Source: Candidatus Doudnabacteria bacterium
GTDB taxonomy: Bacteria > Patescibacteriota > Doudnabacteria > UBA920 > O2-02-FULL-48-8
Direction: 5' to 3'
Assembly: GCA_016186915.1 (NCBI GenBank)
Contig: JACPKU010000006.1
Location: forward strand, 173,739 to 237,738
DNA length: 64,000 bases
Below, piece by piece: positions 2,034 through 40,187 of the stretch. Both the position numbers and the translations under genes were made by a program. Position 1 is the stretch's first letter; every line of letters begins with the position of its first letter. The notes beneath the pieces were generated by a model. It was given only the letters and a program-made list of their open reading frames with translations. It did no database searches and was not told the DNA's origin.

Positions 2034-3029
2034 TTAGAATCCCCCGATGTTGGCGATGGGCGCTTTGATTGCCGGATGCGGATTGTAGTTTTCCAATTTA
2101 AAATCTTCGAATTTGAAATCGTCGATGTTTTTTATCTTGGGATTAATACTAATGTTCGGCCAGGGTTTGGGATCTCGGGATAGTTGTTCCTTGACCGCGT
2201 CGAAATGATTGGAATAAATGTGAACGTCGCCGAAAAAATGGATAAATTCACCGGGTTCAATCCCAGTGACTTGTGCGACCATTAGAGTTAACAGCGAATA
2301 ACTGGCAATATTAAACGGCACTCCTAAAAACAAATCTCCGCTTCGCTGAAACATTCCACATCGCAATTTGTTATTTACCACAGCAAACTGAAAAGTAGTA
2401 TGACAAAACGGCGGCACTTCATTCGCATTCCCCTTCGATGCCATTTGATAAATAAAATCCGGATTCCAAGCAGATACTACGTAAGATTTGCGGTAGGGTT
2501 TGTTTTTCAGACCCTCAATCACCCAACCAAGCTGGTCAATCTCTCGTCCATCAGAAGCTGGCCATCGCCTCCACATCCGGCCGTAGACGGTAATCAAATC
2601 TCCCCAATTTTTGACGAACTCGCTATCTGTGGGCTCGGCTTTGAGCCTGGCAATAAATTCGTCCTGCGTCAGATCGGGATGCGCGCCGGCCAGGGCCAGT
2701 TTATGGTATCGCTTCCAGGCCCATTCATCCCAAATATGAACATCATTATCCACTAAATATTTAATATTGGAACTGCCGGAAAGAAACCAGAGAAGTTCGT
2801 GTATGATGCCGCGAGTAAAAATTTTTTTTGTAGTCAACAATGGAAAACTTTTCGACAAATCAAATTTCATCATTTGACCAAAAACCGAACGAATGAACGG
2901 CGGCTCCTCGCCTTTCTTTTTATACTCCGCCAGAACTTCCGGCGTAAAAAATAAAGGCTTATCCGAGCCGTGGTTCAAGATATCTTTCAGCAAATTCAAA
3001 TATTGATACTCGGGGTGTTGGAATGACAT
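2034..3029 (-). CDS. thyA: Thymidylate synthase (ThyA type) with lineage-specific insertions
   Basis: The sequence FPLLTTKKIFTRGIIHELLWFLSG plus downstream ThyA blocks identify it. At 331 aa it is longer than the roughly 264 aa typical form. Confidence 0.85.
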   Translation of the reverse strand: MSFQHPEYQYLNLLKDILNHGSDKPLFFTPEVLAEYKKKGEEPPFIRSVFGQMMKFDLSKSFPLLTTKKIFTRGIIHELLWFLSGSSNIKYLVDNDVHIWDEWAWKRYHKLALAGAHPDLTQDEFIARLKAEPTDSEFVKNWGDLITVYGRMWRRWPASDGREIDQLGWVIEGLKNKPYRKSYVVSAWNPDFIYQMASKGNANEVPPFCHTTFQFAVVNNKLRCGMFQRSGDLFLGVPFNIASYSLLTLMVAQVTGIEPGEFIHFFGDVHIYSNHFDAVKEQLSRDPKPWPNISINPKIKNIDDFKFEDFKLENYNPHPAIKAPIANIGGF

Positions 3030-3742: not shown

Positions 3743-4289
3743 ATTTTTTGACCTATTGCCTGCTTGGAAAGCAGTTTACCATTAACGACGCATTGAATTC
3801 TGTTCCAAGATTTATCTGACTGTAAAATTTTCAAAGCCCGTTTTCTAGCTCGTTTCTGATGATCCAGATCAGCCTCGTGTTTGTCCTTTTTTCTTGATCT
3901 CATGAGCTTGGCTGAAATCTCCACTGGCATGTCAAGAAGAATCGTGATCTTGGGTTGAGGCAGTTTCAGTAAACCAAATGGATCATGTTTGAACCGGTGT
4001 ACCGGTCGAGTATTACTACATTTCCTTGGTTTAAACTTTTTATCAACTGGTCGCGGTATTCGTACCTGTTTAAAGCGTATAAAAAAGCAATTAATTTCGC
4101 GCCGTCAAATTTGAGCTGTCCGTTTAAATATTTTGCTATCAGCTTGCCGGTTGGCGTATGGTATCGGGGGAAAGATACCACTGCAACCGGATAACCGTGG
4201 TTTTTGAAGTTCATCCTTAAAAGTTCCGCTTGTGTTCCTTTTCCCGACCCGTCAATCCCTTCAATTGCAATAAGCCTTCCCTTGGACAT
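3724..4289 (-). pseudogene. tmk: Thymidylate kinase split into two out-of-frame ORFs (3966-4289 N-terminal part, 3724-3930 C-terminal part)
   Basis: The N-terminal ORF has the P-loop EGIDGSGKGTQ and a DRY motif, then stops. The C-terminal ORF (RSRKKDKHEADLDHQKRARKRALKIL...WNRIQ) resembles the Tmk LID/C-terminal region. The two ORFs are in different frames, and about 35-40 central residues appear to be missing. Confidence 0.45.
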
Positions 4290-4909: not shown

Positions 4910-5635
4910 TCATACTTTTCGGCTTTTCATAAAACCTCGCAGGATCGGGTAGTAAAGGTCGTCTTTCAGAGGCATGACAGTTTTTCGATATGTGGCTTTG
5001 TTGGTGAACCGAGTTTTGAAGCCGCGGATAATCACAATTGGCGTTTGTTCAGATCCCTCGCCCATCAACAAAACCGCCATGGCTGCCAATGGCTCTACAA
5101 GATTAGCTACAGTAACCTTCAGTTTACGGCCAAAGATATCAGGAGTCTTTCGGTAATCCTTTAGAGGTTCAAAACCGAAAAACCCAATTGATATTCCGCT
5201 AATTCCCCTACGTAGAGGTGTAATATGACTATCAGTCGCGATTAGACCCAACTTCTTAAGGCCGTGTTTGCGCTTAAGATAAGACCAAAACTGTTTAAGA
5301 AGCTTATTTGTATCTTTAGGCCAGAGAATATAGTGGCCTTTGGCATTGCTCTCGTCGATCCCGGCAGAAGCTATGATCGTGTGATGCTTAATAGTGAACA
5401 CAAACTTGTGTTTACTATTTGTAGGATGCAAAGCCACGTACTCAGCCTCTGATTGAATCAGTTTATTCTTATCTACCTTCGTATCTATTTTAACAGTGCG
5501 GCCTTGGTGGATGGCCAGGATCTTGGACGTGATCACCGCGATATCCCCGTCTTTGAGCTTAAGTTTGTCTAAGATGTCGTAGATTTCGTCTTTTGGTGGC
5601 AGGACCTTACGAGTTTTAACTTTGATGAATTGCAT
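4910..5635 (-). CDS. CofE-like (F420-0:gamma-glutamyl ligase family) protein of unknown function
   Basis: It contains DGDIAVITSKILAIHQGR, ASAGIDESNA, LIATDSH and LLMGEGSEQTPIVIIRG, which are blocks typical of the CofE/FbiB N-terminal domain family. Confidence 0.55.
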   Translation of the reverse strand: MQFIKVKTRKVLPPKDEIYDILDKLKLKDGDIAVITSKILAIHQGRTVKIDTKVDKNKLIQSEAEYVALHPTNSKHKFVFTIKHHTIIASAGIDESNAKGHYILWPKDTNKLLKQFWSYLKRKHGLKKLGLIATDSHITPLRRGISGISIGFFGFEPLKDYRKTPDIFGRKLKVTVANLVEPLAAMAVLLMGEGSEQTPIVIIRGFKTRFTNKATYRKTVMPLKDDLYYPILRGFMKSRKV

Positions 5636-19750: not shown

Positions 19751-19752
19751 TC

Positions 19753-19782
19753 ATACATTCATACACGACTGTATGAATGTAT
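19753..19782. repeat. Palindromic hairpin repeat, copy 3 (12 bp arms, ATACATTCATAC-ACGACT-GTATGAATGTAT)
   Basis: It overlaps the stop codon of the NYN gene and abuts the tRNA-Arg 5' end. Its loop is inverted relative to copy 1. Confidence 0.7.
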
Positions 19783-32153: not shown

Positions 32154-32244
32154 ACCTTTTTAATTTAGCGCGTCAAGTTTAGCAGAAAAAACCAAATCTA
32201 GCAAGACTGCCAAATTTTGTGGGGGTTGACATTTAAGAAAAATA

Positions 32245-32290
32245 CGTGGTGGGTGGTTAACTCAAAGGTAAACCAACCCACCAGTCGTGC
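32245..32290 (-). terminator. Intrinsic terminator after the GC-rich islet ORFs
   Basis: The minus strand reads GGUGGGUUGG...CCACCCACC followed by ACGUAUUUUUCUU. Confidence 0.5.
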
Positions 32291-32292
32291 GC

Positions 32293-32565
32293 CTAGCGGA
32301 GACGGATCACCATCGCCGTCGTGAAGGACTGCTGTCCTGCGTCAAAAAACTCCTGCAAGGAGCACCCCGCCTGTTGCATCGCAAGTTGAGCCATCGTGCC
32401 GTCCAGTTCAGTTGATGTCACTTCAGCAACCGGCTTCTCATAGCAAGCCGCGATTGTTCGCCTCACACGGCCCAGCTCCCGACCACCTGGTTTGTCCACG
32501 GCAACGAGGTCCACATCTGAACCGACCCAGTTTCCGAGTCCTCCGAGTTGGTGCCAGAATTCCAT
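32293..32565 (-). CDS. Hypothetical 90 aa protein in the GC-rich (about 55%) islet
   Basis: It begins MEFWHQLGGLGNWVGSDVDLVAVDKPGG. It is probably the frameshifted continuation of the adjacent 45 aa ORF. Confidence 0.35.
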   Translation of the reverse strand: MEFWHQLGGLGNWVGSDVDLVAVDKPGGRELGRVRRTIAACYEKPVAEVTSTELDGTMAQLAMQQAGCSLQEFFDAGQQSFTTAMVIRLR

Positions 32566-32577
32566 CGGGTCAGATCT

Positions 32578-32715
32578 TCAGACGCAGCCCTTGATCCCTC
32601 GAAGTTCCACGAGACTAATTCCGTAGTGAAAGATCTTGGCTGGGATGTCTGTCTCTTCTTTCACCAGCGTGCTGGAGCTGGAGATCACCGTAATGGGGCG
32701 AAAACCCTTCTTCAT
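32578..32715 (-). CDS. Hypothetical 45 aa ORF with a strong SD (AGGAGG-5 nt-ATG) in the GC-rich islet
   Basis: It reads MKKGFRPITVISSSSTLVKEETDIPAKIFHYGISLVELRGIKGCV. Its stop codon lies 15 nt upstream of the start of the next ORF. Confidence 0.3.
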   Translation of the reverse strand: MKKGFRPITVISSSSTLVKEETDIPAKIFHYGISLVELRGIKGCV

Positions 32716-32766
32716 GTAATCCTCCTAGGTTTTGACCATTGCACAGAAGAATTATCGCTCTTCTCT

Positions 32767-32790
32767 ACAATCGTCTTGGAGCCGACCGTC
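32767..32790 (-). pseudogene. Isolated tRNA 3'-end fragment (…GTTCAAGTCCGACGGTCGGCTCCA), about 80% identical to the tRNA-Thr 3' end
   Basis: Its acceptor 3' strand (GGTCGGC-T-CCA) is perfectly complementary to the 5' acceptor strand of the partial tRNA at 32935-32990. No T-stem can form. Confidence 0.5.
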
Positions 32791-32859
32791 GGACTTGAAC
32801 CCCGGTAGTAGAACACTTCGTGTTCACTACGGGGCAGGCCTCCAACTTTACCCCGTACC
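32791..32859 (-). other. Long imperfect hairpin (CCCCGTAGTGAACAC-GAAG-TGTTCTACTACCGGGG) plus spacer within the rearranged tRNA-Thr locus
   Basis: It is directly visible. It shares the CCCCGTA start with the inverted repeats that flank tRNA-Thr. Confidence 0.4.
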
Positions 32860-32934
32860 GAATGCTTGATGGAGCCGGCTGTCAGATTTGAACTGACGAC
32901 CTACCGCTTACGAAGCGGTTGCTCTACCCCTGAG
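32860..32934 (-). tRNA. tRNA-Thr (anticodon CGT), flanked by a 14 nt inverted repeat (CCCCGTACCAGAATG ... CATTCGGTACGGGG)
   Basis: The reverse complement is GCCGGCTTAGCTCAGGGGTAGAGCAACCGCTTCGTAAGCGGTAGGTCGTCAGTTCAAATCTGACAGCCGGCTCCA. Confidence 0.85.
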
Positions 32935-32990
32935 CTAAGCCGGCATTCTGGTACGGGGCTACGGTTTACGATACCGTTGCTCTACCATTG
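32935..32990 (-). pseudogene. 5' half of a second tRNA-Thr(CGT)-like gene (acceptor GCCGACC, D-arm, anticodon arm ACGGT-ATCGTAA-ACCGT) lacking a T-arm
   Basis: The reverse complement is GCGCCGACCTAGCTCAATGGTAGAGCAACGGTATCGTAAACCGTAGCCCCGTACC. Its matching 3' acceptor strand lies 145 nt downstream, beyond the intact tRNA-Thr. Confidence 0.5.
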
Positions 32991-32994
32991 AGCT

Positions 32995-33045
32995 AGGTCG
33001 GCGCGTTGGTGCAGGCTGCTGTTATGATACTGCTGCTCTACCATT
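32995..33045 (-). pseudogene. Second, more degenerate copy of the same tRNA 5' half
   Basis: AATAGCTCAATGGTAGAGCAGCAGTATCATAACAGCAGCC aligns with CTAGCTCAATGGTAGAGCAACGGTATCGTAAACCGTAGCC. Confidence 0.45.
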
Positions 33046-33097
33046 GAGCTATTTTGGTGTATTCAATTACAATTATACCACATATATCACAAAAAAC

Positions 33098-34169: not shown

Positions 34170-34808
34170 TCACTTTTTGCCAGCCCTTTTTAAAACATCA
34201 ATGGAACTTTTATCCTTGCTTATTTCTTTAAGCCAATAGTCTGTCAGTTCTTTGATTACTTTTTTGGTGTGTTTGTTTCGAATTTTACTTATCATTTTCG
34301 GTAATGCCTTGCCCAAAATATCATCGTCGTCATTTTTATAATGGCCGGAGTATCTCAAAAAGTGCCCACATTCCATATAGTCGGCCATTTTGAAAATCCA
34401 AGCTTCATCAGTTTTCGGATCAAGCATCTCTTTTGCCAGTTTCCTAAAATATTTTTCATCCTCTCCAAAAAACTTGCCTATAAATTTATGGTTTTCCTCT
34501 TCAAATGCTTTTGCCTTCACTCTGGCACGCTTATTAAGCTCAACATAAATCCTGGAAATATCACCGCCGAACAACTCTCCCAAATCGTGAATCAGCGCAT
34601 ACTCCAAAACTTTCTGGATATCAATTACTCCGCCCTGGTTTTTAATATGTCTAGCCAACTGCCAGGCGATCATTGTTACTAAATAATGGTGCTCGGCGAG
34701 ATTGCTCAACTCATAACTTTTTACATCACTAAGAGCATATCCGTATTGCGGTTGGGTTCTGGTTAATTCGAGTAGTCGAAATAAATCGGGTAAGTTTTTC
34801 ATAATCAT
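34170..34808 (-). CDS. HD-domain phosphohydrolase (YfbR-like 5'-deoxynucleotidase family)
   Basis: The H...HD motif reads HHYLVTMIAW...ALIHDLGELFGGDI. The start is taken at an internal Met, because the track N-terminus overlaps tRNA-Gly. Confidence 0.6.
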   Translation of the reverse strand: MIMKNLPDLFRLLELTRTQPQYGYALSDVKSYELSNLAEHHYLVTMIAWQLARHIKNQGGVIDIQKVLEYALIHDLGELFGGDISRIYVELNKRARVKAKAFEEENHKFIGKFFGEDEKYFRKLAKEMLDPKTDEAWIFKMADYMECGHFLRYSGHYKNDDDDILGKALPKMISKIRNKHTKKVIKELTDYWLKEISKDKSSIDVLKRAGKK

Positions 34809-34862
34809 CTCTTTTTTGGAGCACGATACGGGAATTTCACCCCGCACCAAATTAATTAATCT

Positions 34863-34936
34863 TGGAGCGAGCGACGGGAATCGAACCCGCGTCTCAACCT
34901 TGGGAAGGTCGTATACTGCCATTGTACTACGCTCGC
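34863..34936 (-). tRNA. tRNA-Gly (anticodon CCC)
   Basis: The reverse complement is GCGAGCGTAGTACAATGGCAGTATACGACCTTCCCAAGGTTGAGACGCGGGTTCGATTCCCGTCGCTCGCTCCA. Confidence 0.8.
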
Positions 34937-34957
34937 AAAAATTTTGGTGCGGAGCAG

Positions 34958-35000
34958 GCCCATGCCTAAACCTTGGGAAGGTCTCGTACTGCCATTATAC
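34958..35000 (-). pseudogene. Degenerate partial duplicate of the tRNA-Gly 5' half, about 20 nt upstream of the intact gene
   Basis: taaaccttgggaaggtctcgtactgccattatactaatcccgc aligns with tcaaccttgggaaggtcgtatactgccattgtactacgctcgc. Confidence 0.5.
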
Positions 35001-35008
35001 TAATCCCG

Positions 35009-35851
35009 CTATTTTACGATTTTCCAAACCGGCAAGTTTTGGGTTTGGTGCTCAAACCATTGATCAAACCCGCTGGTTTCCACCAAAATATGCTTAACCT
35101 GCCAAACTTTCGCTTCGCCTTGACCATTGGATTCAACTGGGTAAAGCAGATGATAGCCAAACCTGCTCACCACGATCTGGTCCAACACCGCGCCAATTTG
35201 GGCTTGGTCAATTTTATTAAACAATTCCGGGATAATTTCATGTTCCTGGACAAATCCCAAATCTCCGCCAAATTGCCCAGTCAGTTTATCATCGCTTTTC
35301 TCCCGCGCCAAGTCTTCAAAACTTCGTCCTTCATTCAGCTGCCTTTGAATATCCTTGATTCGATTAAATGCGTTACTGTTCATCTCAAAGTTTGAGTTGA
35401 AACGAATCTTTAGTGCCGCAGACAAAGCTTCGGGCTCAACCACGAATTTTTCAAACAATTTTTCCTGTCCGGAAAAATGATCCTTGACCAATTTAATATA
35501 TTCATCATTGTTGTTGGTCTTGAAAAACAAAAACTCATCGGTTATCTTTCCACTGTCATAATCCACCCTTAGTTTCCTCACCAGGCTTTCCATTTTTTTC
35601 GCGCTGATCAGTTGATCAATCACAGTTTTTTTGGAAACGGTACTGTCTAAGCTTCTGGCAATTTCAAACGCTTTATCTAACTCATATATTGATATCAGGC
35701 GCTCCCGGACCACCACGGCTGGATAGATTTTTTTGAAGGTTAAACTCAGCGGGTCATGAAAATCAGCAGCGTAGGCGATAAACGCAGTCAAAGCAAAAAG
35801 CACGAGCACTCCCAAAATAATTACGATGGTCAAATAAATCTTGTGCGCCAT
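35009..35851 (-). CDS. Membrane-anchored PpiC/parvulin-type peptidyl-prolyl isomerase (PrsA/SurA-like)
   Basis: It has an N-terminal transmembrane segment and the parvulin block GGDLGFVQEHEIIPELF...GYHLL. Confidence 0.7.
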   Translation of the reverse strand: MAHKIYLTIVIILGVLVLFALTAFIAYAADFHDPLSLTFKKIYPAVVVRERLISIYELDKAFEIARSLDSTVSKKTVIDQLISAKKMESLVRKLRVDYDSGKITDEFLFFKTNNNDEYIKLVKDHFSGQEKLFEKFVVEPEALSAALKIRFNSNFEMNSNAFNRIKDIQRQLNEGRSFEDLAREKSDDKLTGQFGGDLGFVQEHEIIPELFNKIDQAQIGAVLDQIVVSRFGYHLLYPVESNGQGEAKVWQVKHILVETSGFDQWFEHQTQNLPVWKIVK

Positions 35852-36339: not shown

Positions 36340-38565
36340 TCATTTTTTTAATATTGCCAAGAATGCTTCCTGCGGTATATCCACTGAACCGACCCGCTTC
36401 AGCCGCTTTTTGCCTTTCTTCTGTTTTTCCAGAAGTTTCATTTTTCTGGTCACATCGCCGCCATAGAGTTTGGCTGTCACGTCTTTGCGCATGGCGGGTA
36501 TGGTTTCGCGAGCGACTATTTTGGATCCGATCGCGGCCTGCAGCGCCACTTCAAACTGCTGTCGGGGAATCACAGTCTTAAGCTTTTCTACCAGCGACCG
36601 CCCTTCTGATTCAGCCACTTCCTTATGGACGATCAACGACAGCGCGTCCACTTTTTCTTGTGCCACCAGAATGTCCAGTTTAACCAGCTCCGCCTCCCTT
36701 AGATCCAAAAGTTCGTAATTCAGAGAAGCGTAGCCAGAGCTGATACTTTTAAGTTTATCATAAAAATCAATAATGATGTTGGCCAGCGGAATTTCAGCGG
36801 TTATCATCACTCGATCCTCTCTGACGTAGTCAGTATTTTTATAAATCCCACGGCGCGCGGTAATCAGTTCCATCACTCCCCCAATGTATTTTTGTGGAAT
36901 CAAAATTTCCACCAGCACCCATGGTTCCTCCACGCTTTCTATGTGTGACGGATCAGGCAATTCGGCCGGGGTGTGGACGATTTTCGAATCCCCATTTTTT
37001 AAATTCACCTTGTATTCCACGGAAGGAGCGGTCAGAATTAAATCGAGATCGTACTCGCGCGACAGCCGTTCCTGCACAATGTCCATATGCAAAAGCCCCA
37101 AAAATCCCGCTCGGAATCCAAACCCGAGAGCGGGTAAATTTTCTGCCTCAAACTCGAGTGCCGCGTCATTGAGCTTGAGTTTGTCCATTGCGTCTCGAAG
37201 CAGCGGGTAGTCGTCGCCGCTGGTCGGAAAGATGCTCGCATAAACCATGGGTTTGACCTGTTTATACCCGGGCAGTGCTTTCGCTGTATTGCTTGATTGG
37301 AGCGTGGTTACTGTATCTCCTACCCGCGCTTTGCGCACTTCTCGCAAGCCGGTCACAATATAGCCGACCTCTCCTGTTGCCAGCTCAATCGCTGGAAACA
37401 ATTTTGGTTTAAAGAAACCAACTTCCAGAGCCTGCGACTGCGTTTTGGTGCCCAACATTTGGATTTTTTCATTTTTTTTCAACTGTCCGTCAACAATTCT
37501 GACAAATATCACCACCCCGCGGTGTTGATCGTACTTTGAATCAAAAATCAAAGCCCGTAGCGGCTGATCCTCTTTTCCGTTCGGTGAGGGAATCCGAGCC
37601 ACTATCTGCTGTAAGATCTCCTCTACGCCCTCGCCGGTTTTGCCGGAAGCAAACAATATGTCCTCTTTCTTAAACCCAAAAACATTAACGATTTCTGCTG
37701 CCGTCTTTTCGCGCTCGGCATTTGGCAGGTCGATTTTATTAACCACGGGAATAATCTTTAATTTATGCTGCTGGGCCAAATGCACGTTGGCAATTGTCTG
37801 CGCTTCTATGCCTTGCGTGGAGTCAACGACCAAAATCGCTCCTTCACAAGCGGCAAGCGAACGGGAAACTTCGTAAGTAAAATCTACGTGTCCGGGGGTA
37901 TCTATTAAATTCAATACGTACACAGACTCAGGCGGACTGGACGCGGACTGGTCGGAATTTATTAGCCTTTTAATTTCAGCTCCATCAGGTCCAAAATTTA
38001 CAAGTAATGCCAGTTTATGCGGGGTTCCCTTTAAATAATTCCATAATTGTGCTTCTTCTTTTCTACCAATAAGCGGCAATGCTTTGATCTCTAAAATTAT
38101 TTTATTATCAACTAGAAAATCTGGACGGTAAACGCCAACCTTCGCGCCCTTATAAGAAACCGTAATCTCTTTTTCCTGAACAAAGGGTATACTTCTCTGT
38201 TTAAGCTCCAGAGCCAATGCTTTTTGATAGACGTTTTCCTTATGACCGCTTCCAAGCTGTTTCCTAACCTCAAAAATCGCACCTCTAACACTATAACTCA
38301 GGTCTTCATAGAGCAGTCCTTTGTCTGCATTAGTCTGTTTGCTGTCAGCGTTAGTCTGCGGCGGTGTCCACTCCATCCGAACTGGCTGCAGCTTAATAGT
38401 AATCCCCCGCTCGCGCTCCAAATCCATGGTGTCCAAAAGCTGGTCCTTCATCTCCCGTTTGGCCAAAGTGTGCGTCACTTCCAAAAGCCGATCCGCCAGC
38501 GTGGACTTGCCGTGATCAATGTGGGCAATGATGCAAAAATTACGGATTTTTTCTGCTGCAGACAT
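36340..38565 (-). CDS. lepA: Elongation factor 4 (LepA) carrying an in-frame, roughly 140 aa GxxExxY (PD-(D/E)xK superfamily) domain insertion in the G domain
   Basis: LepA blocks are present (IIAHIDHGKSTLADRLL, DTPGHVDFTYEVSRS, the C-terminal LepA_C KMKLLEKQKKGKKRLK). Between GITIKLQPVRMEW and LNLIDTPGH lies an insert reading GAIFEVRKQLGSGHKENVYQKALALEL...YRPDFLVDNKIILEIKA...AQLWNYLK. The start is taken at MSAAEKIRNF, with the RBS GAGGG. Confidence 0.8.
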   Translation of the reverse strand: MSAAEKIRNFCIIAHIDHGKSTLADRLLEVTHTLAKREMKDQLLDTMDLERERGITIKLQPVRMEWTPPQTNADSKQTNADKGLLYEDLSYSVRGAIFEVRKQLGSGHKENVYQKALALELKQRSIPFVQEKEITVSYKGAKVGVYRPDFLVDNKIILEIKALPLIGRKEEAQLWNYLKGTPHKLALLVNFGPDGAEIKRLINSDQSASSPPESVYVLNLIDTPGHVDFTYEVSRSLAACEGAILVVDSTQGIEAQTIANVHLAQQHKLKIIPVVNKIDLPNAEREKTAAEIVNVFGFKKEDILFASGKTGEGVEEILQQIVARIPSPNGKEDQPLRALIFDSKYDQHRGVVIFVRIVDGQLKKNEKIQMLGTKTQSQALEVGFFKPKLFPAIELATGEVGYIVTGLREVRKARVGDTVTTLQSSNTAKALPGYKQVKPMVYASIFPTSGDDYPLLRDAMDKLKLNDAALEFEAENLPALGFGFRAGFLGLLHMDIVQERLSREYDLDLILTAPSVEYKVNLKNGDSKIVHTPAELPDPSHIESVEEPWVLVEILIPQKYIGGVMELITARRGIYKNTDYVREDRVMITAEIPLANIIIDFYDKLKSISSGYASLNYELLDLREAELVKLDILVAQEKVDALSLIVHKEVAESEGRSLVEKLKTVIPRQQFEVALQAAIGSKIVARETIPAMRKDVTAKLYGGDVTRKMKLLEKQKKGKKRLKRVGSVDIPQEAFLAILKK
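37915..38367 (-). other. Inserted GxxExxY nuclease-fold domain within lepA
   Basis: It shows the signature G-H-K-E-N-V-Y and the downstream D...E.K-like blocks of the PDDEXK_3/GxxExxY family. The LepA reading frame continues uninterrupted. Confidence 0.7.
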
Positions 38566-38567
38566 GG

Positions 38568-40187
38568 TTATTCCCTCGTATACCAAGCACTATTAATATT
38601 ACGAGAAAATTTGATGAGCATTGATTTAAGAAGGTTAACCAGACCATGCGTTTCCGCCAGCCCGCTAAACCAGGTTATTCCCAAATAAATCACAAGACCG
38701 ACGAGTGACGCTCCAGCGGCTTGGGTAAACACCCCGACATAGGTCTGCATGTTAACCAGCGGAGCAATCAAATACAAAGATACATAAGCGCCAGCAGCAG
38801 ACAGAGCCGATCCAATCACAATCTTTAAACTATTGATGATCAAGTATTCGTCATGGATGTGACCGATTTTTTTATGCAACTCCATAACTAGCATAACTAA
38901 GTGAATAATACTGGTCAGGGAAAACGCGATCGCCATGCCAGGAATGCCGAATCTTCTGACAAAGAAATAAGTGGCGAAAACATTTACTACGATAACAATA
39001 AGACCAATGATTACCGGGATAGCGGTATTGTGCCGGGCATAAAACGCTCGAGTGAACAAAGGGGCCAGCGCCTGGGCAAACAGGGAGACCACAAATAATC
39101 CGAGTGTTAAAGACACCACGCGCGTATCCGCAAAAGTAAAGCTGGTATTTTCTCCAATTCCCAACACCAACCTGACTATCTGGGCACGCAGAATAAGCAT
39201 CAATACGGACAGCGGAATGATAAAATATAAAATCTGAATCGTGGTTCTGGCGAGAACATCCTTAAATTTTTGATCGTCGCGCTGGTTGAAGTATTCCGAC
39301 AAGGTTGGAAAAACCGCAATGGCGGCCGAGATGGCAAAAATGCTTAAAAACACCGCCTGCAAATTGTTAGCGTAATAAAAGACCGACAACGAGCCGGTGC
39401 CTAAGAACGATCCAAAAATCGTGGCCACCAAAAGGGTCACCTGGCTGGTGCCCATGGAAAAAATCCTTGGCCAATACAATTTCCAAAATTGGATGAATCC
39501 GGAGTCACGCAGCGCCAGCACCAAGGAATAACGGAAGCCCATAAAAAACACTTGCGGTAGTTGAATGAGAAAATGCAGGAGAGCTCCGATAACCACGCCG
39601 ATGGGCAAACCTATTGGTCCCATGATCGGATACAACACCAGCACGCCAAATATAATGGACAAGTTATAAACCAAAGGCGCCGCGGCAACCACTGCAAATT
39701 TTTTATAGGTATGGAGAATGCTGGAAGTGATCGAGGAAAGGGACAGAAACAGAGGAGAAAAAAGCAAAATCTTGGTAAAACTTCTGGTCAGTTCATAAGC
39801 TTCACCAGTAAATCCCGGGGCAATAACCCTAACCAGCGGATCGATAAATAAAAGCGCGAACAAGGATATGCCAATCACTCCAAAAATCGTGCTGTTCGCA
39901 ATACCTGACGCGATCCGAAAAGCCCGGTCTCGATCTTTAAACAAGTAGTCGGAAAATACCGGAATAAATGCCACTGACACGGTGCCCAAAAAAAGCAGAT
40001 TAAAAATAAAGTCCGGAATCCGGAAAGCCGCGAAATAGGCGTCGATCAAAACACTGGTCCCGAACCGGTTGGAAAACACCGCGTCCCGAATAAGCCCCGA
40101 GAATTTGGCCAAGAGCGAAAAAACCGCGATGATCACGGTTGCTTTGGTAAGCGAATCAGATTTAGTATTCAACAACCTGGCAATCAT
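38568..40187 (-). CDS. murJ: Lipid II flippase MurJ (MviN)
   Basis: It is a 539 aa protein with 14 transmembrane segments. Its N-terminus reads ...ATVIIAVFSLLAKFSGLIRDAVFSNRFGTS. Confidence 0.8.
   Translation of the reverse strand: MIARLLNTKSDSLTKATVIIAVFSLLAKFSGLIRDAVFSNRFGTSVLIDAYFAAFRIPDFIFNLLFLGTVSVAFIPVFSDYLFKDRDRAFRIASGIANSTIFGVIGISLFALLFIDPLVRVIAPGFTGEAYELTRSFTKILLFSPLFLSLSSITSSILHTYKKFAVVAAAPLVYNLSIIFGVLVLYPIMGPIGLPIGVVIGALLHFLIQLPQVFFMGFRYSLVLALRDSGFIQFWKLYWPRIFSMGTSQVTLLVATIFGSFLGTGSLSVFYYANNLQAVFLSIFAISAAIAVFPTLSEYFNQRDDQKFKDVLARTTIQILYFIIPLSVLMLILRAQIVRLVLGIGENTSFTFADTRVVSLTLGLFVVSLFAQALAPLFTRAFYARHNTAIPVIIGLIVIVVNVFATYFFVRRFGIPGMAIAFSLTSIIHLVMLVMELHKKIGHIHDEYLIINSLKIVIGSALSAAGAYVSLYLIAPLVNMQTYVGVFTQAAGASLVGLVIYLGITWFSGLAETHGLVNLLKSMLIKFSRNINSAWYTRE

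Follow-up and report, generated by a model that had tools for sequence, protein, structure and literature searches.

Nested same-anticodon tRNA genes in a Doudnabacteria chromosome: candidate selfish tRNA-replacement cassettes with a link to a minimal GIY-YIG nuclease

Introduction

Homing endonucleases that ride with tRNA genes have been characterized in T-even phages. For example, SegB of phages T4 and T6 is a GIY-YIG homing endonuclease encoded in a tRNA gene cluster that recognizes a motif in the tRNA T loop and drives both preferential inheritance and recombination-dependent amplification of the adjacent tRNA genes (PMC2330249, PMC13096335). Such endonucleases are known from these phages, but as invaders of single-copy chromosomal tRNA genes they are undescribed in the literature that we searched. 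Reports of tRNA genes nested in others of the same anticodon, or of GIY-YIG-tRNA cassettes from chromosomes of the Patescibacteria (Candidate Phyla Radiation, CPR), were likewise absent from it. Here we analyze a 64-kb stretch of contig JACPKU010000006.1 from a Candidatus Doudnabacteria bacterium (the window, meaning this whole stretch) in which a complete tRNA-Thr(CGT) gene is nested inside a second, interrupted tRNA-Thr(CGT) gene. This nested cassette pattern is apparently widespread in the tiny genomes of Patescibacteria and apparently has not been described before.

The cassettes share several features with SegB and differ from it in others. As with SegB, a GIY-YIG gene adjoins tRNA genes and the presumed target lies inside tRNA genes (a T-loop motif in the case of SegB), and by analogy the nuclease would be inherited along with the adjacent tRNA genes while breaks and homologous recombination would give rise to repeated tRNA segments. 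Unlike SegB, they reside in cellular Patescibacteria chromosomes and not in a phage, the protein is a 78-amino-acid (aa) catalytic domain only, the replacement tRNA is nested within a resident gene of the same anticodon, GC-rich palindromic hairpins occur at the junctions and the nuclease has been lost from many copies.

Other known systems offer partial parallels. Islands and prophages that depend on an integrase also target tRNA genes, also supply sequence that keeps the tRNA functional and also leave partial copies behind. They differ in having an integrase and direct 3'-end repeats that bound kilobases of DNA, whereas the unit described here is a complete tRNA of about 75 nt in a unit of about 110 bp with an inverted-repeat bracket. 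Intervening sequences of bacterial rRNA and the Rickettsia palindromic elements are short stem-loop inserts in structured-RNA or coding genes of reduced genomes; they are sporadic in distribution, the enzyme that inserts them is unknown and their host gene stays functional. In the present case the host tRNA is instead inactivated and a spare copy is carried by the insert. Archaeal tRNA genes that are split, permuted or interrupted by multiple introns resemble the nests in having non-canonical interruption positions (variable and T regions) and flanking stems, but the nests occur in a bacterium, have no bulge-helix-bulge motif and have outer copies that decay. Lastly, group I introns occur in Patescibacteria tRNA genes with a hotspot at position 35/36 (PMC13011429), and share the phylum, the kind of target, this hotspot and, in principle, an association with homing endonucleases. 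Unlike those introns, the inserts are 20-110 nt in size with no ribozyme detected, and the host gene is replaced rather than rescued by splicing.

Results

Architecture of the nested tRNA-Thr(CGT) locus

Gene content of the window is bacterial, including an F-type ATP synthase operon, LepA, MurJ and gyrase B. Its AtpB has its best relatives in Candidatus Doudnabacteria (Patescibacteria/CPR) with an identity of 76-77% at most, and genome and metagenome scans for closer relatives with an empty site gave none above 77% AtpB identity. In relatives, gene order is conserved as tRNA-Gly(CCC) ... tRNA-Thr(CGT) ... atpZ-atpB. All features of the nested Thr locus are located on the minus strand, and their positions in the window are collected in Table 1.

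The functional gene of the locus is the inner tRNA (A), which is identical at 73/75 positions to an un-nested tRNA of the relative L163. The original prediction, made from the letters of the DNA and a list of open reading frames (ORFs), had recognized this gene but placed it at 32860-32934, which is 10 nt too low. It had correctly described a 14-nt inverted repeat bracketing this gene, as well as a tRNA-Thr-like 5' half with a complementary isolated 3' end, a further degenerate 5' half and an additional hairpin, all of which are present. What had been overlooked are the GTTGGAGG and TTCAAGT... pieces that complete the outer tRNA (B). The 5' part of B consists of the acceptor 5' strand GCCGACC, the D arm and an intact anticodon arm, and GCCGACC is complementary at 7/7 positions to the acceptor 3' strand GGTCGGC; positions 46-53 carry two substitutions in the T-stem 5' strand. 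The cassette, composed of the inner tRNA and a 14-bp bracket stem (an inserted unit of about 110 bp), is located exactly between positions 45 and 46 of B, and a cargo-free hairpin is located between positions 53 and 54, with neither gain nor loss of a target base at these points. When the inserts are deleted in silico, ARAGORN recognizes the remainder as tRNA-Thr(CGT), for the window as well as for the relative L001, and B is therefore a complete tRNA gene interrupted at exactly 45/46 and 53/54. The 228-nt stretch folds as a cloverleaf inside a cloverleaf (-109.9 kcal/mol, z = -7.9), a stability that none of 200 shuffled sequences reached.

A third copy (C) lies outside of B. It is a decayed 5' fragment with 90% identity to B across 30 nt, a stretch that takes in the unusual D-loop AATGGTA, and with its anticodon mutated to CAT and its acceptor strand mutated to an A-rich sequence. 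Upstream of C is a -10-like box that is presumably the promoter of the entire nested transcript; the same box precedes uninterrupted tRNA-Thr genes of relatives. A promoter consensus scan made no call at this box because there is no match to a -35 element.

Table 1. Positions of features at the three disrupted tRNA loci and in the adjoining islet (window coordinates)
Feature	Position	Strand	Details
Thr locus
-10-like box TGGTATAAT	33072-33080	-	11 nt upstream of outermost tRNA fragment
Copy C, decayed tRNA-Thr 5' fragment, positions about 1-45	33016-33060	-	Repeat comparison with copy B
Degenerate copy of left bracket arm, CCTGCACCAACGC	33003-33015	-	Follows copy C, in register with the arm after copy B
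Outer tRNA-Thr(CGT) B, positions 1-45	32959-33002	-	GCCGACC...ACCGTAG
Left bracket arm CCCCGTACCAGAAT	32945-32958	-	Abuts first base of inner tRNA; pairs with 32851-32863
Inner tRNA-Thr(CGT) A	32870-32944	-	Complete, CCA-encoding; ARAGORN; Rfam tRNA, 69.9 bits
Trailer TCAAGC	32864-32869	-	3' of inner tRNA
Right bracket arm ATTCGGTACGGGG	32851-32863	-	Pairs with CCCCGTACCAGAAT, one bulged A
TAAA tail	32847-32850	-	Closes right side of cassette
Outer tRNA B, positions 46-53, GTTGGAGG	32839-32846	-	GTT + GGAGG; aligns with GTTGTCGG of L001
Hairpin-only insertion CCTG-CCCCGTAGTGAACAC-GAA-GTGTTCTACTACCGGGG	32800-32838	-	39 nt; -21.5 kcal/mol, z = -3.7
Outer tRNA B, positions 54-76, TTCAAGTCCGAC-GGTCGGC-T-CCA	32777-32799	-	T loop TTCAAGT, CCGAC, acceptor 3' strand
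Structured leader hairpin	32733-32776	-	Directly after tRNA 3' end; -21 kcal/mol, z = -6.3
Islet orphan gene, about 140 aa	32293-32715	-	In-frame TGA at 32578-32580
Terminator-like hairpin, then TATTTTT	32238-32282	-	Closes islet gene; -20.9 kcal/mol, z = -3.8
Gly locus
Second nest, tRNA-Gly(CCC)	34817-35009	-	ARAGORN, sequence comparison
Outer 5' part	34959-35009	-	
Left arm CCTGCTCCGCACCAAAAT	34941-34958	-	
Inner tRNA-Gly(CCC)	34863-34936	-	
Right arm ATTTGGTGCGGGG	34840-34852	-	
Outer T loop and 3' end	34817-34839	-	
fMet locus
Third disrupted locus, tRNA-fMet	21617-21997	-	tblastn, sequence, translation
Outer fragment CGCGGGGTGGAG	21978-21989	-	
Hairpin	21956-21977	-	
AGCAGCTCGCCAG	21943-21955	-	
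GIY-YIG ORF	21708-21929	-	Internal TAA 21774-21776; tblastn, 41% identity to GIY-YIG of L170
Complete tRNA-fMet	21617-21692	-	

Recurrence in relatives and decay of the outer copies

Motifs and cassettes were compared across the 64-kb window plus 1.33 Mb of related loci, and recurrence was counted at 43 distinct tRNA-Thr(CGT) loci and 15 tRNA-Gly(CCC) loci. Partial copies recur in related genomes: they occur at 11 of the 43 Thr loci and 5 of the 15 Gly loci, with a strong flanking stem at 13 and 2 loci, respectively. One counterpart is L001, along with four identical JGI contigs, where the inner tRNA and the outer allele both differ from those of the window and the bracket is a different one (CCCCGCTCCTTC / GAAGGAGCGGGG-TAAA). 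There the cassette again occupies site 45/46, and a hairpin homologous to that of the window occupies 53/54. In L030, L123 and L045 the cassettes split the anticodon at 35/36, in L004 the D loop is the site of an insertion, L012 contains two stacked 5' fragments with a CCCC(C/T)ACACCA arm after each, and extra cargo-free hairpins occur in L027, L032, L045 and L123.

Uninterrupted alleles that resemble the outer copies are also found in relatives. The allele of L013 matches the outer copy of L001 at 73/76 positions, and those nearest to the outer copy of the window (L016 and L002) match it at 67/76 positions each. These uninterrupted alleles have different, internally compensated stems, and therefore the nests of the window and L001 began in different functional alleles. 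The outer copies themselves are graded from near-intact (window and L001) to truncated (L004, L012, L027, L030, L045 and L123), and after excision of the inserts those of the window Gly locus, L012, L030 and L123 are beyond recognition by ARAGORN. As read from these alignments, the outer copies are probably best viewed as decaying relics and not as split or spliced tRNAs. Syntenic loci that have no called tRNA-Thr (L009, L015 and others) yielded no tRNA pieces and hence no case of a sole tRNA that bears a hairpin, nor was a cargo-free hairpin seen inside a sole tRNA among the loci examined. In L163 the inner allele of the window occurs with the same leader hairpin directly behind it and then an intact islet gene; bracket and outer 3' end are missing, as would be expected after a deletion running from the inner to the outer 3' end.

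Bracket stems and hairpins

Across eight cassettes, 94.8% of cells in the bracket stems are paired, which none of 500 shuffles matched; the arms were picked for pairing, and the informative point is that their sequences differ between cassettes. Eight of the twelve bracket pairs are altered on both sides, and the first four pairs are almost invariant as CCCC/GGGG. For example, the cassettes of L030 and L123 occupy one common nest and differ in three compensatory pairs. The end ...ACGGGG-TAAA is common to the window cassette and those of L001, L030, L045, L123 and L012. Homologues of the 53/54 hairpin in L001, L030, L032/L119, L045 and L123 have 92% of cells paired with two compensatory pairs. 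Pairing energies of the 40-nt tRNA flanks split into two groups, and the left flanks of insertions vary (GTAG, ATAG, ATCG, TAAA, TGGG and TTGG).

A role of the bracket as folding insulator of the inner tRNA was considered and rejected after a negative result in a partition-function test, with a cloverleaf probability of 0.82 for wild type, 0.77-0.80 with the arms shuffled and 0.96 with the arms deleted. A G-U strand bias that would separate an RNA role from a DNA role was likewise absent, as sense and antisense energies of the bracket stems had no consistent difference.

Several palindromes recur near tRNA genes. A perfect or near-perfect 20-bp palindrome, CCTGCCTGCCGGCAGGCAGG, occurs in L045 (563-574 and 4072-4083) and L123 (2652-2663) at differing positions of dead tRNA fragments, and CCCTGCCGGCCGGCAGGCAG lies upstream of the tRNA-fMet fragment of the window (22014-22033). 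Another palindrome, ATTCATACAGTCGTGTATGAATGTAT, closely precedes tRNA-Arg(CCG) in the window (19751-19790, minus strand) and likewise the outer tRNA-Thr fragment of L045 (about 3760-3790).

Physical link to a minimal GIY-YIG nuclease

A nuclease gene is present in the nests of several relatives. The syntenic locus L170, which surfaced through a homologue look-up of a PaaX-like neighbor, contains an outer tRNA-Thr 5' part with two GC-rich hairpins, followed by a 78-aa ORF and, after 4 nt, a complete tRNA-Thr(CGT). The encoded protein consists solely of a GIY-YIG catalytic domain (PF01541, E 1e-19). GIY-YIG ORFs are located 4-19 nt upstream of tRNA-Thr(CGT) at the same syntenic locus in L170, L006 and L013 (PF01541 E 1e-13 to 1e-19), and the homologues directly upstream of tRNA-Thr in L006/L089 and L013 are likewise accompanied by hairpins and outer tRNA remnants.

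The family is large, with at least 1848 clusters and about 70-79% identity across Patescibacteria classes. A sample of five members, drawn from the groups Magasanik-, Buchanan-, Taylor-, Moran- and Doudnabacteria, gave 10 places, and at 10/10 of these a complete tRNA (Thr-TGT, Lys-TTT or Val-CAC) lies 2-100 nt downstream of the GIY-YIG gene. Wherever upstream sequence existed, a tRNA 5' fragment with a CCCGCCCGC...GCGGGCGGG hairpin precedes the ORF; the L177 contig starts within the hairpin so that no 5' fragment is visible there, and the match between fragment and downstream tRNA was judged by eye (L173, L178, L180 and L183). L183 retains the outer 3' part as well and is thus a full nest that encloses the nuclease gene.

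At one Moranbacteria place the GIY-YIG-tRNA-Lys module is followed directly on its downstream side by a large serine recombinase gene (L181 1780-3114). In a sister contig CutA1 takes the position of this recombinase, and therefore a second mobile element uses the same tRNA.

The PaaX-like protein mentioned above (winged helix plus Cas2-like domain, PF20803; 33169-33720, minus strand) is encoded between the two nested tRNA loci of the window, and this genome also encodes a paralogue of it with 52% identity at another place. The PaaX-like protein was considered as a mobilizing protein and rejected, as no tRNA lies near its homologues in L164, L167 and L172.

The tRNA-Gly(CCC) and tRNA-fMet loci of the window

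The window contains a second nest, at tRNA-Gly(CCC), in which the cassette is bracketed by CTCCGCACCAAAAT / ATTTGGTGCGGGG and inserted at position 53/54 of the outer tRNA-Gly. The acceptor of this outer tRNA now has one mismatch and one G-U pair. The mechanically called ORF of an HD-domain protein (34170-34922, minus strand) extends over the 3' end of the outer tRNA-Gly and on into the inner tRNA; translation of this protein probably begins at an ATG near 34802.

A third locus, at tRNA-fMet, contains a GIY-YIG pseudogene between a hairpin-interrupted tRNA-fMet 5' fragment and a complete tRNA-fMet. Three more GC-rich hairpins occur upstream of this fragment in an AT-rich spacer (21930-22130, minus strand) and may be older junction debris. 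A conserved element of the form AAA[GA]CTACCGGC...CTGCTGA...GGGCT...CGCGCCG.CGCGCT occurs with about 70% similarity in the window (21486-21616, minus strand), where it is 3' of tRNA-fMet, and in L006 (about 5470-5560), where it is 3' of a tRNA-Thr remnant.

The GC-rich islet and the variable slot before the atp operon

An islet of elevated GC content (55.8% versus 45% for the window) adjoins the nest, and it has a GC content of 54-56% in both genomes that possess its gene. The original prediction of two small ORFs with Shine-Dalgarno sequences and a terminator was correct as to GC content and a terminator-like hairpin, but the two ORFs are one gene split by a TGA and only the first has a clear Shine-Dalgarno sequence. 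A homologue, P0002 (146 aa), spans both ORFs with an R at the position of the window stop. The islet protein is 100% identical to HYW51_02510, a protein from a Doudnabacteria metagenome-assembled genome (MAG), and has no match in Pfam, NCBIfam or PHROGs. The leader hairpin between nest and islet is kept after tRNA-Thr in L016 (4553-4600) and L163 (77-125) with G-U and C-G exchanges, and has no Rfam match.

A conserved atp promoter box (GTCAAGA...TTGCCAAA...TTTTTTGTTA...ACGCG) occurs at 32168-32233 of the window and also in the tRNA-Thr/atpZ region of L001-L050. In many relatives this box is directly 3' of the tRNA, and elsewhere 0.3 to >1.5 kb of unrelated small genes intervene; the slot between tRNA-Thr and box ranges from about 300 to >2000 nt in relatives. 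Because this spacing is filled by unrelated small genes in some relatives, the tRNA-Thr/atp region is a variable cargo slot. L163 has the intact islet gene at the same position with no nest, and consequently we regard the islet as variable hotspot cargo that is not demonstrably a part of the cassette.

Discussion

We favor, with moderate confidence, the interpretation that the Thr locus records serial, precise invasions of a tRNA gene by small selfish cassettes of a homing, nuclease-associated type that carry a same-anticodon replacement tRNA. This interpretation takes its architecture, precision, recurrence and physical link to a nuclease gene from the loci themselves, and would add cleavage, homing and processing by analogy with SegB. 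A GIY-YIG nuclease, acting in cis or in trans, would break the resident tRNA gene, and repair would copy the nuclease gene and the linked tRNA unit into the broken gene, as in homing by T4 SegB. The invading tRNA, which differs in its stems, would escape cleavage and keep the cell alive; it would be transcribed from the resident promoter and freed by ordinary RNase P and 3' processing. Subsequently the nuclease gene would decay and disappear, the fMet copy being already a pseudogene and the Thr and Gly nests having none, and the dead outer halves would decay, gather more hairpins and be trimmed. Repeated rounds could stack fragments such as C, B and A in the window, and homologous recombination between inner and outer copies could finally resolve a nest into a clean replacement of the kind present in L163. 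Selection would retain the bracket stem, because of a role either in processing or in mobility. The only indirect sign that a nuclease-less allele may be cleaved and the cassette inherited by gene conversion is the rapid turnover of alleles at a single syntenic locus.

Several points weigh against this interpretation. The 78-aa GIY-YIG protein is a catalytic domain only, with no DNA-binding domain that would find a target, unlike SegB or I-TevI, and its site-specific cleavage is only putative. No nuclease gene is present at the Thr and Gly nests of the window, so that the nuclease link is made there only by analogy; the best reading of these two nests would be as nuclease-less derivatives of homing-type cassettes. 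An inverted-repeat bracket with a TAAA tail is not obviously an outcome of simple homing, which also does not account for the varied insertion points (45/46, 35/36, 38/39, 53/54 and the D loop). Nor did the partition-function test indicate that the inner tRNA folds better with its bracket, and the hairpins could be an independent element family.

This last point leads to the most serious rival, which we nevertheless judge rather unlikely: a non-autonomous hairpin cassette, independent of the nuclease, that transposes into loop-encoding positions of tRNA genes by means of an unknown enzyme acting in trans, with survival of those copies that carry a matching tRNA and with the GIY-YIG genes as separate occupants of the hotspot. 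The conserved termini CCCC...GGGG-TAAA, the existence of cargo-free hairpin relatives in both orientations, the lack of a GIY-YIG gene at most nests, the same 20-bp palindrome at different positions in L045 and L123, and a 62-nt hairpin that is also an intergenic terminator in L013 all fit such an element. However, there is no constant target sequence, no target-site duplication at any junction of the window or its relatives, no transposase found in the window and no site in 1.33 Mb of loci that resembles an excised-circle or tandem junction (GGGG-TAAA-CCCC), and in the comparison set the tested bracket and hairpin motifs are confined to tRNA loci. The insertions also do not have the signature of an IS200/IS605-type element, as left flanks vary and one hairpin spans both ends. 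Agents of this class had been part of the original prediction, which proposed repeated insertion by an integrase or a miniature inverted-repeat transposable element (MITE). Repeated insertion is upheld by the precise inserts, the uninterrupted alleles and the stacked 5' fragments of relatives, but neither agent is: inverted arms are present as in a MITE with no dispersed copies, and a scan of 37 window proteins for mobile-element proteins found no integrase, transposase or reverse transcriptase. Scars of tyrosine- or serine-integrase elements (a prophage or island with a tRNA segment in its attP, later deleted) are accordingly quite improbable. tRNA genes are the usual integration sites of such elements, cargo of variable length separates tRNA-Thr from the atp promoter in relatives, and several insertion points fall in the anticodon loop and the T loop, where Williams is said to have placed integrase crossovers in 2002. 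Yet the repeats are 5' halves plus a true nest and not 3'-end direct repeats bounding an island, the inserted unit is about 110 bp long, the 45/46 junctions share no core with the element ends, and a search of viral contigs for a tRNA-Thr 3' end followed by CGGGGTAAA gave 0 hits.

That the inserts are a new type of small bacterial tRNA intron removed from RNA, such that outer and inner tRNAs are both functional, would agree with the precise insertions lacking any duplication, with a stem that joins the two ends, with the nearly intact outer copies of the window and L001, and with position 35/36 being a known intron hotspot in Patescibacteria tRNAs (PMC13011429). We consider this very improbable, as well as its variant in which the halves anneal as a split tRNA, which the original prediction had raised as a Nanoarchaeum-like alternative. 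The host is a bacterium and there is no bulge-helix-bulge, since the stem is continuous from its first pair with the unpaired AG and UAAA both outside; no Rfam family except tRNA and no ribozyme were found even at E up to 10; outer copies have stem mismatches and are truncated in most relatives, where their decay is progressive; and no sole tRNA gene was observed to hold a hairpin-only insert. Chimeric assembly or collapsed repeats can be all but dismissed. Repeats of this kind do trouble assemblers, as the contig of L163 is broken 1 nt ahead of the tRNA and an N gap adjoins the hairpins of L006. However, the Thr nest has the same sequence (100% identity) in the NCBI MAG and in two Logan contigs that come from independent assemblies of SRR4343428 and SRR12113385. 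The nest therefore is not an assembly artefact, and L001 is identical to four JGI contigs.

A broader form of the selfish-cassette interpretation can be offered only tentatively. A 78-aa GIY-YIG protein, a GC-rich palindromic hairpin and a tRNA might together constitute phylum-wide selfish tRNA-replacement cassettes in Patescibacteria, in which a structure-specific nuclease would cut at hairpins that have been extruded or at cruciforms of tRNA genes, loop positions would receive newly copied DNA, and hairpin-bracketed tRNAs with no nuclease, such as those of the window Thr and Gly nests, would be mobilized in trans. The outcome would be continuous turnover of tRNA alleles, possibly as an arms race with nucleases that target tRNA or tDNA, in organisms with one copy per tRNA. 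The unusual aspects here are the minimal nuclease, the hairpins and the apparent killing and replacement of single-copy tRNA genes. If the selfish-cassette interpretation is correct, it would account for the strong differences between tRNA alleles at one syntenic locus in related CPR species, as well as for CPR assembly breaks at tRNA genes and for possible mis-calls or misses by annotators there. The abundant 78-aa nuclease family would be a mobile-element protein with a testable target, and the nests would be a natural example of a "kill and replace" strategy for an essential gene. Their precise insertion sites should also be useful for learning how tiny palindromic hairpins enter structured-RNA genes.

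Other genes of the window

Two further genes of the window, both on the minus strand, contain apparent insertions. LepA (36340-38586) has an in-frame PD-(D/E)XK nuclease domain (PF13366, aa 95-207) within its GTPase domain, which may be another in-frame selfish insertion. Thymidylate synthase (2034-3029) is an end-to-end match to its Pfam profile, and as the protein has 331 aa versus 266 profile positions, an internal insertion of about 60 aa is implied.

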